NCBI GenBank assembly: GCA_043826455.1
Contig: JBDRQD010000021.1
Coordinates: 10,181-74,180, forward strand
Length of the DNA: 64,000 nt
Origin: Candidatus Bathyarchaeota archaeon
Lineage (GTDB): Archaea > Thermoproteota > Bathyarchaeia > TCS64
Direction: 5' to 3'
The stretch's first letter is position 1. Each line of letters begins with the position of its first letter. The position numbers and the translations under genes are program-made. The notes under the pieces were generated by a model. The model saw only the letters and a program-made list of their open reading frames with translations, was not told the DNA's origin and did not search any database. Of the stretch, positions 44,661 through 51,563 are shown in pieces.

Positions 44661-45401
44661 GTGTGGAAGCCAGTGTACGCCATACAGGCTAGGGAGCTCA
44701 CCAAGTACTTCGGGAGGACGGAGGCCCTCCGAGGCGCCAGCTTCACCGTGGACGAGAACGAGATATACGGCCTCATAGGGCCCAACGGGGCGGGGAAGAC
44801 GACGGCTCTCAGGATTTTCAGCACTCTCATCAGCGCATCGTCGGGCTCCGCCCAGGTCTTCGGATTAGACGTGGCGAGGCAGCCGGAGAAGGTGCGGGAG
44901 ATTCTCAGCTACCTGCCCGAGGAGGCCGGGGCGTACCAGTATTTGAGCGGCCTGGAGTTCCTGGAGTTCATGGCCGGCTTCTACTCCAGCAACAAGACAG
45001 ATATGCAGAGGATCGTGGAAGAGGGTAAGAGGATCAGCGGCCTGGGTGACCGCCTCCAGGACAGGGTGAACGGTTACAGCAAGGGGATGAAGAGGAGGCT
45101 CCTCATCGCTAGGGCGTTGATGATGAAGCCCAGGCTGGCCATCCTAGACGAGCCGACGAGTGGCCTGGACGTGACCCAGAGCATCCATGTCCGAAACATG
45201 ATCCGGGAGTACGCGGATAGAGCGGGGGTGACCGTGCTGCTGTCCAGCCACAACATGCTGGAGGTGGAGTACCTGTGCAGCAAGGTGGCCCTCATCAGCA
45301 ACGGCGTGGTCATGGTCGAAGGGTCTCCTGATGAGCTCCGGAACAGGTACGGGGTTAAGAACTTGGAGGAGGTCTTTATGGAGGTGACTCGCAGTGCGTA
45401 A
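44661..45401 (+). CDS. ABC exporter ATP-binding subunit
   Basis: GPNGAGKT, YSKGM, ILDEPT, SSH. Confidence 0.95.
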   Translation: MWKPVYAIQARELTKYFGRTEALRGASFTVDENEIYGLIGPNGAGKTTALRIFSTLISASSGSAQVFGLDVARQPEKVREILSYLPEEAGAYQYLSGLEFLEFMAGFYSSNKTDMQRIVEEGKRISGLGDRLQDRVNGYSKGMKRRLLIARALMMKPRLAILDEPTSGLDVTQSIHVRNMIREYADRAGVTVLLSSHNMLEVEYLCSKVALISNGVVMVEGSPDELRNRYGVKNLEEVFMEVTRSA

Positions 45402-46704
45402 CCTGATCGCCATAATCGTCAAGGAGGTGAAGGAGCTGGTGAGGGACCCCAAGATACTGATAGGTGTGATCCTGATGCCTATCATCATCTTCCCCATCAT
45501 GGGGTCGGCCATTCAGATCAGCCAGGAGTCCGTGGAGAGGGCCATCATGGGGGCAAGCTTCGCCGTCTATACAGACGACGAGGGCTTCGTCACAGACGCC
45601 TTGCTCAGCTACCTCTATAACAACAACACGGTGGTGCCCATTGATGCTGGCAGCCTGGAGGAGGCGCTCATCAGCTTCAAGGAGACGGACAGCTCGGCCA
45701 TGATCTACATCCCCAGCGGCTACAACGATAACGTAACCCTGGGCCAGAAGGGGGTGCTGAGGGTTTATGCTAACCTCAGGAAGCTGAACATGGCTGAGAC
45801 CCAGAGCACCAACGTGGTGAGCAGCCTCATCACCGTCTACAACTACTACTTCAGCATCAGCAAGATCAGGAACCTGCTGGCCCAGACGGGCAGCATGGGG
45901 ACCCCGGAGGCAGTGAGGAGCCCCATAGAGATTCGTTACGCGTCCATACTGAAGGGGAACGTGCTGGACATACCGCCCAACGCCATCTTCAGCCTGGTCA
46001 TGGGGCAGAGCATCATGCTGCCCATCATGGTGATGATGATGGTCATATTCGCCATCCAGATGGCCGCCACCAGCATCGCCCTGGAGAAGGAGCAGAAGAC
46101 CCTGGAGACGCTTATGACGCTGCCGGTGAGCAGGCTCACCATCCTGGCCGGGAAGCTGAGCGGGAGCATAGTGATAGCCTTAGCCGGGGCTGTGAGCTAC
46201 CTCATAGGCTTCGGGTTCTACATGAACGCGGCGTTCAGCTTCGTCCCGGAGGCCACCACCATGAACATCAGCGACGTGGACATTAGTATCACGCCCTTCG
46301 GCATGGTGCTGGTGGGGGTGGTCATCTTCGTGACCCTGGTCTCGGCTCTGGCCATGGCCCTGAGCGTGGCGGTGTTCGCCGACAACGTGAGGAGCGCCCA
46401 GAGCTTCACGGGGGTGCTCATCACGCCCATCATGATCCCGGCCGTCGTGCTCATGTTCAGCGACATTGAGATGCTGCCCCAGAGCGTCCAGTGGATTATG
46501 CTTGTGATTCCTTACACCCACAGCATCATTGCGACGAAGGCGGCGTTCCTGGCCGACTACGTGGTGGTGGTGCGCAGCATCCTGTTCATCAGCGTCTGGA
46601 CGCTGGCTGTGCTCTACGTGGCGGCCAAGATTTTCAGTACGGAGCGCATAATTACGGCCAGGTTCACCCTGGGAGACTTCGGGAGACGGTTCAAACGTAA
46701 GTGA
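45394..46704 (+). CDS. ABC-2 type permease (NatB-like)
   Basis: KEVKELVRD, EKEQKTLETL..P, GK motif, about 6 TM helices. Confidence 0.92.
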   Translation: MRNLIAIIVKEVKELVRDPKILIGVILMPIIIFPIMGSAIQISQESVERAIMGASFAVYTDDEGFVTDALLSYLYNNNTVVPIDAGSLEEALISFKETDSSAMIYIPSGYNDNVTLGQKGVLRVYANLRKLNMAETQSTNVVSSLITVYNYYFSISKIRNLLAQTGSMGTPEAVRSPIEIRYASILKGNVLDIPPNAIFSLVMGQSIMLPIMVMMMVIFAIQMAATSIALEKEQKTLETLMTLPVSRLTILAGKLSGSIVIALAGAVSYLIGFGFYMNAAFSFVPEATTMNISDVDISITPFGMVLVGVVIFVTLVSALAMALSVAVFADNVRSAQSFTGVLITPIMIPAVVLMFSDIEMLPQSVQWIMLVIPYTHSIIATKAAFLADYVVVVRSILFISVWTLAVLYVAAKIFSTERIITARFTLGDFGRRFKRK

Positions 46705-46715
46705 CTTTTCCTCTC

Positions 46716-47831
46716 TTATTCTAGCTCTCTTATCTCGATGCTTGTCATGGACGTGATGGCCTCGAAGAAGGGCTCATCCTCCTCGGTGACGAGGGTGACC
46801 GAGGTCCCCTTCTCCTCCATGCGGCCCGTGCGGCCCACCCTGTGGAAGTAGACCTCCGGGTCCTGGGGGACCTCGTAGTTGAAGATGTGGCTCACGCCCT
46901 GGATGTCCAGGCCCCTACCGGCCACGTCGGTGGCCACTATGTACTTGAGGGTCCTGAGCTTGAAGGCCTCCAGGACCTGCCTTCTCTTGGACTGGGAGTG
47001 TTTTCCGTGGATGACCTCCATGGGGACCCCTGCCTCGGTCAGTTTCTGGGCCAGCTCGTCCGCGGACTCCCGGGTGTTGCAGAAGATGACTGCCTGGTCT
47101 ATGTCTCTGCCGCGGATTAACTCCATGAGCCTCTGGAGCTTCTCATCCGGCTCCACCCTGACGTAGTACTGGTCCACCAGGGGCTGGGCCACCTCATCCC
47201 GAGACAGGAGCACCTCCTGGGGGCTCACCATGTAGCGCCGGGCGTACCCTATTACATCGTCGCTAAGGGTGGCGGACCACATACTGGTCTGGCGGACGAA
47301 GGGGGTCCTAGAAAGGATGAACCCCACGTCGTCGACGAAGCCCATCTCCAGCATCTTGTCGGCCTCGTCCACCACGGCAACCTTCACGTGGCGGAGTTCG
47401 ACGACCCGCCTCTTGATGAGGTGTATAAGCCGGCCGGGGGTGCCCACCAGCACATGGGCGCCCTCCTCCAGCCGGGTGATCTGTTTGATGATGTTCTCGC
47501 CGCCGTAGACTACCTGGACCTTGACGCCGGTGTACCGGGCGAACCGTCGGATCATCAATGCGACCTGCTGGGCCAGCTCCCTGGTGGGGGCTATGACCAA
47601 GCCCTGTATATGCTCCTCTGATGCGTCCATCTTCATCACGAGGGGTACGCCGAAAGCCGCCGTCTTGCCGGTGCCCGTCTGGGCCTGCCCTATCACGTCC
47701 ATCCCGTCCAGGAGGAGGGGCATGGCCTTGGCCTGTATGGGGGTGAGCTCCTTGAACCTGAGCTTCCTGAGCCCCTTCAGCACCTCCTGGCTCAGGGGAA
47801 GGTCCTTAAAACTTGTCTTGTCTGCGATCAT
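46716..47831 (-). CDS. DEAD-box RNA helicase (core only)
   Basis: Q motif, AQTGTGKT, PTRELA, TPGR, DEAD, SAT, HRVGRTGR. Confidence 0.96.
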   Translation of the reverse strand: MIADKTSFKDLPLSQEVLKGLRKLRFKELTPIQAKAMPLLLDGMDVIGQAQTGTGKTAAFGVPLVMKMDASEEHIQGLVIAPTRELAQQVALMIRRFARYTGVKVQVVYGGENIIKQITRLEEGAHVLVGTPGRLIHLIKRRVVELRHVKVAVVDEADKMLEMGFVDDVGFILSRTPFVRQTSMWSATLSDDVIGYARRYMVSPQEVLLSRDEVAQPLVDQYYVRVEPDEKLQRLMELIRGRDIDQAVIFCNTRESADELAQKLTEAGVPMEVIHGKHSQSKRRQVLEAFKLRTLKYIVATDVAGRGLDIQGVSHIFNYEVPQDPEVYFHRVGRTGRMEEKGTSVTLVTEEDEPFFEAITSMTSIEIRELE

Positions 47832-47931
47832 ACAGGCCCTGTACCGATTTACATAAGATCGACTGATAAAGAGTCTGGTAAAGTGTGTCAACGGTGAAAA
47901 ATGCTGCGTCGAAGGTTAAAGACGGGGTGTA

Positions 47932-48105
47932 TTAGCGGCGGCGGCGTCTATTGTATTCGTCTCTCGGCTTGTAGACGATCCGGGTCATGTAGTTTTGTTT
48001 GTTGCGCCTCAGGGGACTGGGGCTCTTCGAGATGTTGGTGGTCTCGATCTTCGGGGTCTGGGCTCTCACCTTCCCAGCCTTTGTCAGGGAGCCGTGTGTT
48101 GGCAT
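47932..48105 (-). CDS. rps30e: 30S ribosomal protein eS30, not in ORF track
   Basis: [20 protein letters not shown]...RNKQNY..R, 57 aa; TAATG overlap with csp. Confidence 0.93.
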
Positions 48106-48323
48106 TAAGCCTCAGCCGCCTGTTCCTGTGTGACTATGGTGATCTCGGTGGCTTCCTTACCCTTAGGGGTCTCGATGACCTTGAACTCTACCTCTGTGTT
48201 CACTTCCGGTATGGATGTGACCGGGTAGTTGGATGAGTGGAAGAAGATGTCGTCTTTACTATCCTCAATCTCTATGAACCCGTATCCTTTATACGAAAAA
48301 TACTTCGCTATTTTTCCTTTCAT
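48105..48323 (-). CDS. csp: Cold-shock domain protein
   Basis: RNP1 KGYGFI, RNP2 DIFFH, VEF....PKG..A. Confidence 0.93.
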
Positions 48324-48517
48324 ATAAAAACACTTGCACATATACGGGGGACACAGGTTATATGTCTTATGTTTTCACTGGAAAAGTCTAAAAATTTTAA
48401 AAATATTTATTTTACCGCCAAAAATATTCTTTCGGCGTGCTTAATGAAGGATATTTTTTCGATGAGAAAAGTATTTTGCCTTAATCGAGTCTCACATGAA
48501 GGCGCCACGGAGGGGCG

Positions 48518-48832
48518 CTAGGTGAATAGCCGCTTCTCCAGGCCCCGCTTCTCCTTGAACAGCTCGTCCAGGCGGGACGTGTACTCTCTAAGCTTCACCC
48601 TGTAGGCGTCCTTGACCTTCTCCTGGTCTTCGCTGTGCTTCCTGACGACGATGGTTTTAGTCATGTCCGTGGGTGACCTGACCCTGATGTTGCGGCTCCC
48701 GGTTCTGGATGAGTCCAGGATGTCCAGGTTTCTCTTTATGCGTCTGTACTCGGTGTCAGTGTTGATGTCCTTCAGCTCTTCCTCTATCTGCATTATCCTG
48801 TTTAGTATGGTTCTTCGCGTGGGGCTCATCAA
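48518..48832 (-). CDS. Hypothetical coiled-coil protein
   Basis: 104 aa, charged and helical. Confidence 0.6.
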   Translation of the reverse strand: MMSPTRRTILNRIMQIEEELKDINTDTEYRRIKRNLDILDSSRTGSRNIRVRSPTDMTKTIVVRKHSEDQEKVKDAYRVKLREYTSRLDELFKEKRGLEKRLFT

Positions 48833-48946: not shown

Positions 48947-49210
48947 TTATGGTGCTATGACGAAGTGGGTGCGGGTGTCCGTGATGAACCCCAGGGCCTC
49001 TGAAAGGTCGTTCTGCATCATGGCGTTCTCGTAGTCCTTCACGTCTCCCTTCATGAGGTAGACTATGCCCTCCGTTGTGCCGAAGGGGTGGCCCCAGAAC
49101 ACCAGCTCCATCTTGTATTTTTTCAGTATCTTGCCCACTTTCTCGAACTTCTTGGGCAGGTCACCGGGCTGGACCAGCTTCGCGTAAGATATGTAGTACT
49201 TAAACTCCAT
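48947..49210 (-). CDS. Small GYD-like / dimeric alpha+beta barrel-like protein
   Basis: KKYKMELVFWGHPFG..E; similar to 51270-51563. Confidence 0.6.
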   Translation of the reverse strand: MEFKYYISYAKLVQPGDLPKKFEKVGKILKKYKMELVFWGHPFGTTEGIVYLMKGDVKDYENAMMQNDLSEALGFITDTRTHFVIAP

Positions 49211-50253: not shown

Positions 50254-51057
50254 TCAGCCCAGACACTTCCGTCTTTCCCTGGTTCGTTCAACTTCCTCCA
50301 GGAAGCTGAGCACATGGGGTAGAACCAGGTCGACTCTATCGAAAGCGTCACCGTGGTCTAACCCGGGTAAGGATACAAGTCTGGCGTTGGGCATTATCTC
50401 TGCGCACTTCTTCGCCCCAGGGTAGTAGTAGTCCTTGTCTCCGCAGTAGAGCAATGTGGGCGTAGTGACCTTGGGGAGAAACTCCTCGTACCCTAGGCGC
50501 TCGTTGAGTTTAATGATGTCGGTGACGGCAGCTGTGTCCAGCTCCATGAAATGTCTTCGCTCCTGCTCTGAAAGGCCCCCTCCAATCGTCTCCTCCATCT
50601 CCTTGATGATGGCCTCATTGCCCTTGCTGAAGAACGTGATCATCTCTTTCCGCCTATTCTTACTGGCCTCGGTGTCCCACTCGTCGGCACCCATTCCCCC
50701 GATTATCAGGGCGCTGAACCTGTCTGGGGCGTACTTCCCAGTGGCTAGACCCACCCTGCCTCCCAGCGAGAAGCCCCAGAAGTGGGCCTTCTCGTAGCCG
50801 AGGTGGTCGAGCACGGCCACCGCGTCACCCACCATCTTCTTCATGGAGTAATCTTCCGGCTTGTGCGGCTTGCTGCTCTTTCCGTGGCCTCTGGCGTTCA
50901 GGAGTATGAGTTCATGTTTCTCTTTCAGTGGCTCAATGTAGCCGGCTGCCCTCCAGCTTCCAGGATACCCGGATAAACCGTGGTGAATCATGAGGGGATA
51001 TCCCTCCCCCTCTACGCTGTAGTATATCTTAACGTCCTCATTCCGTGCGAACGGCAT
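50254..51057 (-). CDS. Alpha/beta hydrolase
   Basis: HHG, RGHG.S, GFSLGG nucleophile elbow, GDKD, catalytic H. Confidence 0.92.
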   Translation of the reverse strand: MPFARNEDVKIYYSVEGEGYPLMIHHGLSGYPGSWRAAGYIEPLKEKHELILLNARGHGKSSKPHKPEDYSMKKMVGDAVAVLDHLGYEKAHFWGFSLGGRVGLATGKYAPDRFSALIIGGMGADEWDTEASKNRRKEMITFFSKGNEAIIKEMEETIGGGLSEQERRHFMELDTAAVTDIIKLNERLGYEEFLPKVTTPTLLYCGDKDYYYPGAKKCAEIMPNARLVSLPGLDHGDAFDRVDLVLPHVLSFLEEVERTRERRKCLG

Positions 51058-51269
51058 CTACAAACTCATCTCCTAAATCTTTTTAAGCCCTATTTCTAGT
51101 TATTTTATATTAATATTAATATTTACTGAGTGAAAAAATATAATTTCAGTGCAATACAATAATTTTAACTAAATCCGATGCCTGAAGATAAACCCTTAAA
51201 TCGGCAACAAACCAACTTCCATTTAGGTTCTGCTCACATAAAATGGTCAGAGCCTAGAAGGTGCATCAA

Positions 51270-51563
51270 GTGACCAAAGCACTGTACATATGCTTCGTGA
51301 AGTGGTCCATAGACGCCTACAAGAAGTGGGGCGCCGACCCCGAGTACTTCAACAAGAACTGGATGCCCAAACACGACGAACTCATGAAGAAGCACAGCCT
51401 CAAGCTAGCCTACAACGGCACACCCTTCGGGCTACCCGAGGACGCCTGCATGGTGTACGAGGGCGGCTCCGACGTGGACAAGTACAAGCAGTTCAGGCAA
51501 GCCGTCGCAGCCATAGCCCCGGGCATACTGGACTCAGCCAACACGATCATCGTCTCGCTGTGA
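51270..51563 (+). CDS. Small GYD-like / dimeric alpha+beta barrel-like protein
   Basis: KKHSLKLAYNGTPFG.PE; aggtg RBS before GTG. Confidence 0.6.
   Translation: MTKALYICFVKWSIDAYKKWGADPEYFNKNWMPKHDELMKKHSLKLAYNGTPFGLPEDACMVYEGGSDVDKYKQFRQAVAAIAPGILDSANTIIVSL

Follow-up and report, generated by a model that had tools for sequence, protein, structure and literature searches.

The window, i.e., the whole stretch of 64,000 nt that was analysed, comes from a Candidatus Bathyarchaeia archaeon and carries on its minus strand three neighbouring genes which an earlier note had proposed as a candidate cold-shock operon. Reading frames and Pfam matches place all three where that note had put them: a cold-shock-domain protein of 72 aa (Csp, 48105-48323; PF00313 at 49.6 bits against a cut-off of 27), a second ribosomal protein eS30 of 57 aa (hereafter eS30b, 47932-48105; PF04758 at 42.4 bits, above the curated cut-off of 27) and a core-only DEAD-box RNA helicase of 371 aa (46716-47831; PF00270 at 164.9 and PF00271 at 104.1 bits). 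Its finer details hold as well, since the csp stop shares one base with the eS30 start (TAATG), exactly 100 nt separate eS30 from the helicase, and eS30b ends in NRRRRR. The TAATG overlap is special to the window genome, the four nearest relatives having a 2-nt gap between csp and eS30b, and arginine tails are not confined to eS30b, as they are also seen on housekeeping eS30 copies in the genus.

Upstream of csp lies the AT-rich intergenic region remarked on before, which contains the csp promoter (48324..48517, no strand; aligned with 7 orthologous regions). Its GC content of 0.37 compares with about 0.60 in coding DNA and is no more extreme than that of the nearby intergenic stretch 51000-51199 (0.325). 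A TATA-box candidate of the csp-eS30b unit (48357..48364, minus strand) is located 41 nt before the csp start. Judged from its sequence, a T5 tract after eS30b (47897..47901, minus) is a candidate archaeal terminator, and a conserved promoter-like element (47863..47879, minus) is found 40 nt ahead of the helicase start. The minus-strand frame 48518..48829 encodes a conserved hypothetical protein of 103 aa (c43), for which we have homologues in the genus and a structure model. An ABC-2 transporter pair on the plus strand (44661-46704) converges on the helicase with an 11-nt gap and is retained in those window-type loci that extend far enough to show it. Two small hypotheticals without Pfam match (48947-49210, minus; 51261-51563, plus) look related by eye.

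Within its genus subfamily, members of which elsewhere bear a C-terminal HhH (DUF4332) domain, the Csp is a stand-alone form, and it remains below every cut-off of the NCBIfam CspA/C/D/E/G models. Compared by eye with the six RNA-binding residues given for the CspA family in the text of PMC5572242 (W11, F18, F20, F31, H33 and F34), it has Y8, Y14, F16, F27, H29 and S30, i.e., five aromatic or His residues and a Ser in place of F34. The same source describes cold induction as not universal among Csp proteins and bacterial Csps as also working in stationary phase and other stresses. Cold is a putative trigger of the csp-eS30b unit, proposed purely from knowledge of the Csp family. Genomes of the genus hold up to 11 csp copies, and any csp occurs in 40 of 251 Bathyarchaeia.

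All motifs of a DEAD-box helicase core (Q, I, Ia, Ib, Ic, II (DEAD), III (SAT), IV, V and VI) are found in the window helicase, which resembles CshA as its best NCBIfam match (433 bits against a cut-off of 646; the CsdA-type model scores 290 against 890). It differs from CshA and CsdA by falling below all equivalog cut-offs, by lacking a C-terminal extension (the model is matched only to position 362 of 434) and by being a genus-wide gene usually situated away from csp. The genome has two further core DEAD-box genes, three in all, and in the tree of the helicase orthogroup the clade of five window-type genomes is sister to the remainder.

A second eS30 gene copy

eS30 is one of three small-subunit proteins common only to TACK/Asgard archaea and eukaryotes, and the function of its archaeal form has so far been inferred from structure. 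The suggestion that the eS30 of this locus is an alternative paralog, and not a single constitutive rps30e, is borne out by the copy number: the genome carries two PF04758 matches, and the housekeeping rps30e lies on contig C74 near RNase P and rps8e-like genes, with a TATA box at -41. At least two eS30 matches occur in 19 of 32 genus genomes. In a tree of 71 copies, 23 copies from 21 genomes form an eS30b clade (support 99/93), and in a wider tree the group receives weak support of 75. eS30b is thus present in 21 of the 32 genus genomes and was not found in the other 11, the assemblies of which are 72-96% complete. Median pairwise dN/dS is 0.18 for eS30b (25/253 pairs with usable pS) and 0.13 for housekeeping eS30 (94/435 pairs); by this measure eS30b is under purifying selection near the housekeeping level.

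Two rps30e genes could in principle derive from two organisms in a contaminated assembly, for which the contamination estimate of 7.21% might speak, as might the sister-genus assembly G190, which does hold two housekeeping-type copies. Such a binning artefact is effectively refuted by the occurrence of the same pair of eS30 types in 19 genomes, one of them at 1% contamination, by the nearest relative, in which both copies are nearly identical to those of the window genome, and by the contig's rank of 5th among 59 in tetranucleotide fit.

Multiple eS30 matches extend to 5 of 29 other genomes of the same family, where four of the five cases are of eS30b type and the fifth (G190) is the pair of housekeeping-type copies just mentioned, and, in the remaining Bathyarchaeia families, to 7 of 198 genomes. 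Family f28 displays an independent duplication (5/7 genomes) without the linker insertion described below. A second copy of this f28 type, with an ATA start and located behind Alba, is held by genome G099 and is likely a transfer; the loci noted for the f28 duplication and for this copy are L272, L276, L277, L278, L279 and L294. Outside Bathyarchaeia, two eS30 matches are found in 3 of 169 Thermoproteota (G364, G394 and G402), and those of G364 lie 10 kb apart with equal scores.

All 23 eS30b copies share one extra linker residue after the invariant N-terminus. Their linker length equals the spacing of yeast eS30, to which they align ungapped, whereas two archaeal structures (PDB 9fhl and 9e71) align with a gap. 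Residues 2-14 are invariant in 22/22 aligned copies and include P2 and H4, i.e., both the archaeal Pro2 and the conserved His of the N-terminal tail are kept and the divergence sits in the linker and the C-terminal half. The mean net charge of the linker is +1.1 in eS30b vs +2.6 in housekeeping copies, that of the protein +13.5 vs +14.0, and the poly-Arg tail has a mean run of 4.0 vs 2.6. Cysteine is absent from both eS30 copies of the window genome. The score of eS30b against the NCBIfam equivalog NF006817 (64.4 bits, below the cut-off of 75) fits a divergent paralog. According to the main text of PMC11698992, eS30 of Saccharolobus solfataricus is positioned in the mRNA entry channel and contacts h16, while its N-terminal part contacts h44, which is touched by Pro2. 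That protein belongs to the same family, with Pro2 and the His likewise kept, and is one linker residue shorter than eS30b; the words 'paralog' and 'duplicat' have no match in the main text of the paper.

Genomic neighbourhood and accessory gene set

Synteny of csp and eS30 is conserved among relatives and, according to the subfamily tree, recurs with at least two csp subfamilies. A csp gene lies within 3 kb of 17 of the 23 eS30b copies vs 0 of 30 housekeeping copies, counts which are descriptive and overstated because kin genomes are not independent. Three of the six eS30b copies without nearby csp are close to contig ends. The sister genus g4 possesses four second eS30 copies, yet csp matches in 0 of 17 genomes. 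Three layouts recur in the genomes and are seen again in metagenome contigs: c43, csp, eS30b and helicase (5 genomes, including the window genome); Alba, csp-HhH and eS30b (5 copies, Alba being seen in 4); and c26, eS30b, then mostly TFB and csp (9 copies).

The proposed operon of csp, eS30 and helicase survives in its first part only. The link between csp and eS30b stands with the 17 of 23 copies above, but the helicase adjoins eS30b in just 5 of 21 eS30b-bearing genomes, and its orthologues are placed behind another gene in 20/20 other loci examined. A conserved three-gene operon is unsupported because the helicase link is confined to this 5-genome subclade and the gene has a TATA-like element of its own at -40.

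Other ribosomal proteins have csp-linked second copies in the genus as well. A divergent eS26 of 77-80 aa (eS26b), from which the N-terminal basic segment and the C-terminal tail typical of eS26 are missing, occurs in 9 genomes, a second-type uS12 (uS12b) in 8 and a full second-type uL16 (uL16b) in 7. The 10 genomes that carry eS26b, uS12b or both are all among the 21 eS30b carriers (nominal p 0.005). Both genes often follow directly behind csp, and frequent runs are Alba-csp-eS26b or Alba-csp-uL16b-uS12b-eS26b, with TFB, c26 and c43 as neighbours. The control eS25 is effectively single in the 27 of 32 genus genomes that have a match. In the window genome itself eS26, uS12, uL16 and eS25 are each single; contig C79 brings together c26, Alba and the genome's other csp, and genome-wide there are 11 matches to TFB and 7 to Alba. 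We interpret the window as one fragment of an accessory translation set because second copies of eS26, uS12 and uL16 are linked to csp in its relatives.

Alba-csp-eS26b runs are found at L309-L312 and L316, while clusters with Alba, csp, uL16b, uS12b, eS26b, TFB, c26 and c43 are found at L313 (G004:C119), L050 (G005:C39), L314, L315 and L341, which also carry a small Cys-rich protein. In one subclade (G002:C26, G003:C269, G025:C119, G026:C87 and G028:C89), the housekeeping rps30e has parts of the accessory cluster at a distance of 6-8 kb, and this is perhaps the original location of the module. In family f28, 3/5 second eS30 copies are beside TFB, Alba or c26, and at L224, in a different archaeal lineage, a longer-linker eS30 is followed by c26.

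Homologues of c43 are present in 27/32 genus genomes; the gene precedes csp in 5/5 window-type loci and, in two further genomes, adjoins Alba-csp-uL16b-uS12b. The protein has no Pfam or Atlas assignment, and its model (pLDDT 90) is a helical hairpin with a central beta-hairpin, prefoldin-like in shape. Prefoldins appear among its top fold matches, but an identification as prefoldin was rejected, these matches (E >=0.3, Z 8.3-8.4) being within the range of common helical shapes. The uncharacterised c26 (190-200 aa; L054:4095-4685 and G000 C79:25582-26184) has four invariant Cys and an RRxSDDxxFH motif. It finds no Pfam match and no PDB match by profile, its Atlas leads remain <0.9 and point towards PD-(D/E)xK/Mrr-like proteins, and its model (pLDDT 56) yields generic helical matches only. 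It directly precedes 9/23 eS30b copies, its last codons forming their SD.

The constant company of RNA-binding proteins (Csp and Alba) would also suit an eS30b that acts apart from the mature ribosome, either as an RNA-chaperone peptide together with Csp or as a placeholder at the h16 site while subunits are immature or dormant. Sas10 mimics eS30 in this manner in yeast, as described in the available text of PMC9932298 (in which 'paralog' and 'duplicat' have no match), and the slightly longer poly-Arg run of eS30b would be in line with such a role. We regard this possibility as improbable, as Pro2, His4 and the entire decoding-site tail are invariant, as expected of a component of mature ribosomes, and eS30b travels with other bona fide ribosomal-protein copies.

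Promoters, start codons and RNA cover

At 41 nt ahead of csp, 7/7 aligned loci have the identical motif ATATAAC, the offset of which is that of the TATA box found at -38 to -42 in all 30 housekeeping rps30e copies. Upstream of window-type eS30b no TATA element of its own was found (best score -9.9), from which we infer that csp and eS30b should share a transcript. The 17-nt element with TTTATC at -40 of the helicase has 16 of 17 bases invariant in 7/7 loci, and its score of 8.4 exceeds the 90th but not the 95th percentile of the best scores in background sequence. In other contexts, most orthologous helicases are preceded at about this distance by a T/A-rich element, which could also be the terminator of the upstream gene. 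The gap between eS30b and the helicase contains a T-rich run in all 7 aligned loci, not in register.

Assembled contigs from 4 of 12 listed RNA runs were compared with the locus. One of 492 nt from a close relative spans 47671-48159 and runs from the end of csp through eS30b and the gap into the helicase, although RNA libraries may contain DNA and such contigs cannot prove transcription, strand or a single transcript. Contigs from two other runs cover csp and eS30b only and stop at 47894 and 47887, shortly beyond the T5 tract; these ends are not counted as evidence for a terminator. The absence of cover upstream of csp and over parts of the helicase is uninformative.

Whereas eS30b of the window starts with ATG, the copies outside the window-type subclade have 18/18 non-ATG starts (ATA 11, GTA 5, TTA 1, CTG 1), which follow a GGAGGTGA-type site matching the 16S 3' end. 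Starts of this kind thus occur in 18/23 eS30b vs 1/30 housekeeping copies; five GTA/TTA copies have an in-frame GTG inside the SD as a formal alternative. Non-AUG starts are enriched in eS30b, but not unique to it, because other genes of these organisms have them too. An adenylate-kinase-like neighbour (L047:2540-3004 and homologues) starts with ATA in 6/7 loci, csp genes with CTG in 5/19 loci, both eS30 copies of G189 with TTA or ACG, as does eS30 in family f25 (L293 and L295), and one other housekeeping-type eS30 copy with ATT. A genome-wide count of the codons after GAGGTGA was too noisy for use. Gene callers will miss or mis-start genes with such starts.

These weak start codons bear on the possibility that eS30b is equivalent to the housekeeping eS30 and merely adds to the eS30 supply from which ribosomes are assembled or repaired while the csp regulon is active. 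The unchanged functional N-terminus and the similar net charge are compatible with a dosage back-up of this kind, and the linker and tail in which eS30b diverges also vary among housekeeping copies. Weak starts in 18 of 23 copies, however, agree with a limited rather than a boosted output, every eS30b copy has the linker insertion, and the co-occurring eS26b is truncated at both ends. We consider a dosage back-up possible, but rather doubtful.

Virus-encoded eS30

Two tailed-virus records of IMG/VR encode an archaeal-type eS30 on the sense strand, SD-led and among co-oriented viral genes (L174:3001-3183 in a record of 76.8 kb; L175:3001-3171 in one of 136 kb). Among the 62/124 long ORFs scanned, one record has terminase, head and tail matches and the other head, tape-measure and tail-spike matches. 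The eS30 of the former has a linker of eS30b length and falls on the eS30b side of a branch with support 85; a viral origin of eS30b was considered and not adopted, as a tree of 60 columns cannot resolve the direction. No eS30 match was found in GenBank phage records (n=50,697). In the available text of PMC10541130, L21e and bL19 are the only ribosomal proteins of archaeal viruses that are named, and that of PMC6375957 and PMC11499249 mentions eS30 solely as fau, carried in antisense by a murine retrovirus. With these records eS30 joins the ribosomal proteins seen in prokaryotic viruses.

The viral copies, one of them with the same longer linker, the patchy and reshuffled contexts of eS30b and the presence in one genome of a second copy of another family's type all raise the question whether eS30b came along with a mobile or virus-derived cluster that inserted close to csp genes, and has been kept there under weak constraint, without shared regulation. 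This appears unlikely to us in view of purifying selection near the housekeeping level, a GC3 of 0.78 and contig composition typical of the host, and the recurrence of the same partners in separate lineages. Mobile-element genes were not found among the neighbours scanned.

Proposed role of eS30b and comparison with known systems

We give about even chances to eS30b being a variant that is expressed conditionally, in connection with the csp regulon, and is incorporated into ribosomes, and hold a true mRNA-selective specialisation by it to be only about half as probable. Its paralogy, selection, linkage and promoter layout are observed features, from which co-transcription and translational coupling would follow: csp and eS30b would be transcribed as a two-gene unit from the promoter ahead of csp, with eS30b translation coupled to csp, and the helicase would be driven by its own promoter, perhaps with additional read-through. 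eS30b would belong to a csp-linked set in which Csp, Alba, TFB paralogs and two uncharacterised proteins are joined by second copies of eS30, eS26, uS12 and uL16. Under a csp-inducing condition (cold or growth arrest), eS30b may enter the 30S subunit at the mRNA entry channel, where its invariant N-terminal tail would dock in the normal way and contacts around helix 16 would be altered by the longer, less basic linker and by the divergent C-terminal half; Csp and the helicase would meanwhile hold RNA unfolded. Induction, incorporation and changed behaviour are assumed here from knowledge of the protein families.

The closest counterparts are bacterial. Cold-shock operons of csp and rpsU are known from Sinorhizobium meliloti (cspA-rpsU) and cyanobacteria (rbpA-rpsU). 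They similarly pair an RNA chaperone gene with a spare small basic protein of the small-subunit mRNA path, of which the housekeeping copy is encoded elsewhere. The host here is an archaeon, however, and the protein is eS30 (entry channel, h16/h44) instead of bS21 (exit side, anti-SD); cold induction, a trait of the bacterial system, is putative here. Exchange of bS21 paralogs has been described for Francisella and others, along with phage-encoded bS21 (available text of PMC9976891), and has in common with eS30b the patchy extra copies unrelated to zinc, the proposed swap into the ribosome and virus-encoded copies. It differs in protein and domain of life, and in the present case linked second copies exist for as many as four ribosomal proteins. 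The csp-eS30b arrangement may work like both systems and is a member of neither. The zinc-regulated C+/C- paralogs of uS14, bL31 and bL33 treated in the same text, pairs in which only one copy has CXXC zinc ligands, are conditional alternative ribosomal proteins, too, but the eS30 copies are without cysteines and neighbour RNA-chaperone genes, not zinc-uptake genes. In the titles and abstract openings searched, chiefly of freely accessible papers, no mention was found of paralogous eS30 in archaea, of ribosomal paralogs linked to csp in Bathyarchaeia or of an eS30 encoded by archaeal viruses, and PMC9534799 contributed nothing further; some of the copies could already appear in the alignment supplement on eS30 of PMC11698992 or in tables of viral genes.

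Implications for archaeal ribosomes

In this lineage, eS30, eS26, uS12 and uL16 are unsafe as single-copy markers. A natural eS30 pair in one cell, one member with a linker of eukaryote length, and a truncated eS26 are ready reagents for the study of protein function, and the pair offers a test of archaeal ribosome specialisation, which is debated in all domains of life.

A more speculative and on balance unlikely extension of the conditional-variant reading is a stress-ribosome kit, in which eS30b, the doubly truncated eS26, uS12 and uL16 would be expressed together with Csp, Alba and an alternative TFB and swapped in, eS30b being gated by its non-AUG start. The sites concerned would be mRNA entry (eS30), mRNA exit in competition with the SD duplex (eS26) and decoding (uS12); in S. 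solfataricus, eS26 fills the exit channel and excludes the SD duplex (main text of PMC11698992). If true, the refitted 30S would shift the choice among structured, leadered or leaderless and non-AUG mRNAs, tailed viruses of archaea with an eS30 gene would take advantage of this exchangeable site, and it would be the first programmed archaeal ribosome specialisation by paralog exchange known to us. As far as sequences can tell, a second, altered eS30 that usually stands beside cold-shock genes suggests that this group of sediment archaea can refit its ribosomes under stress.
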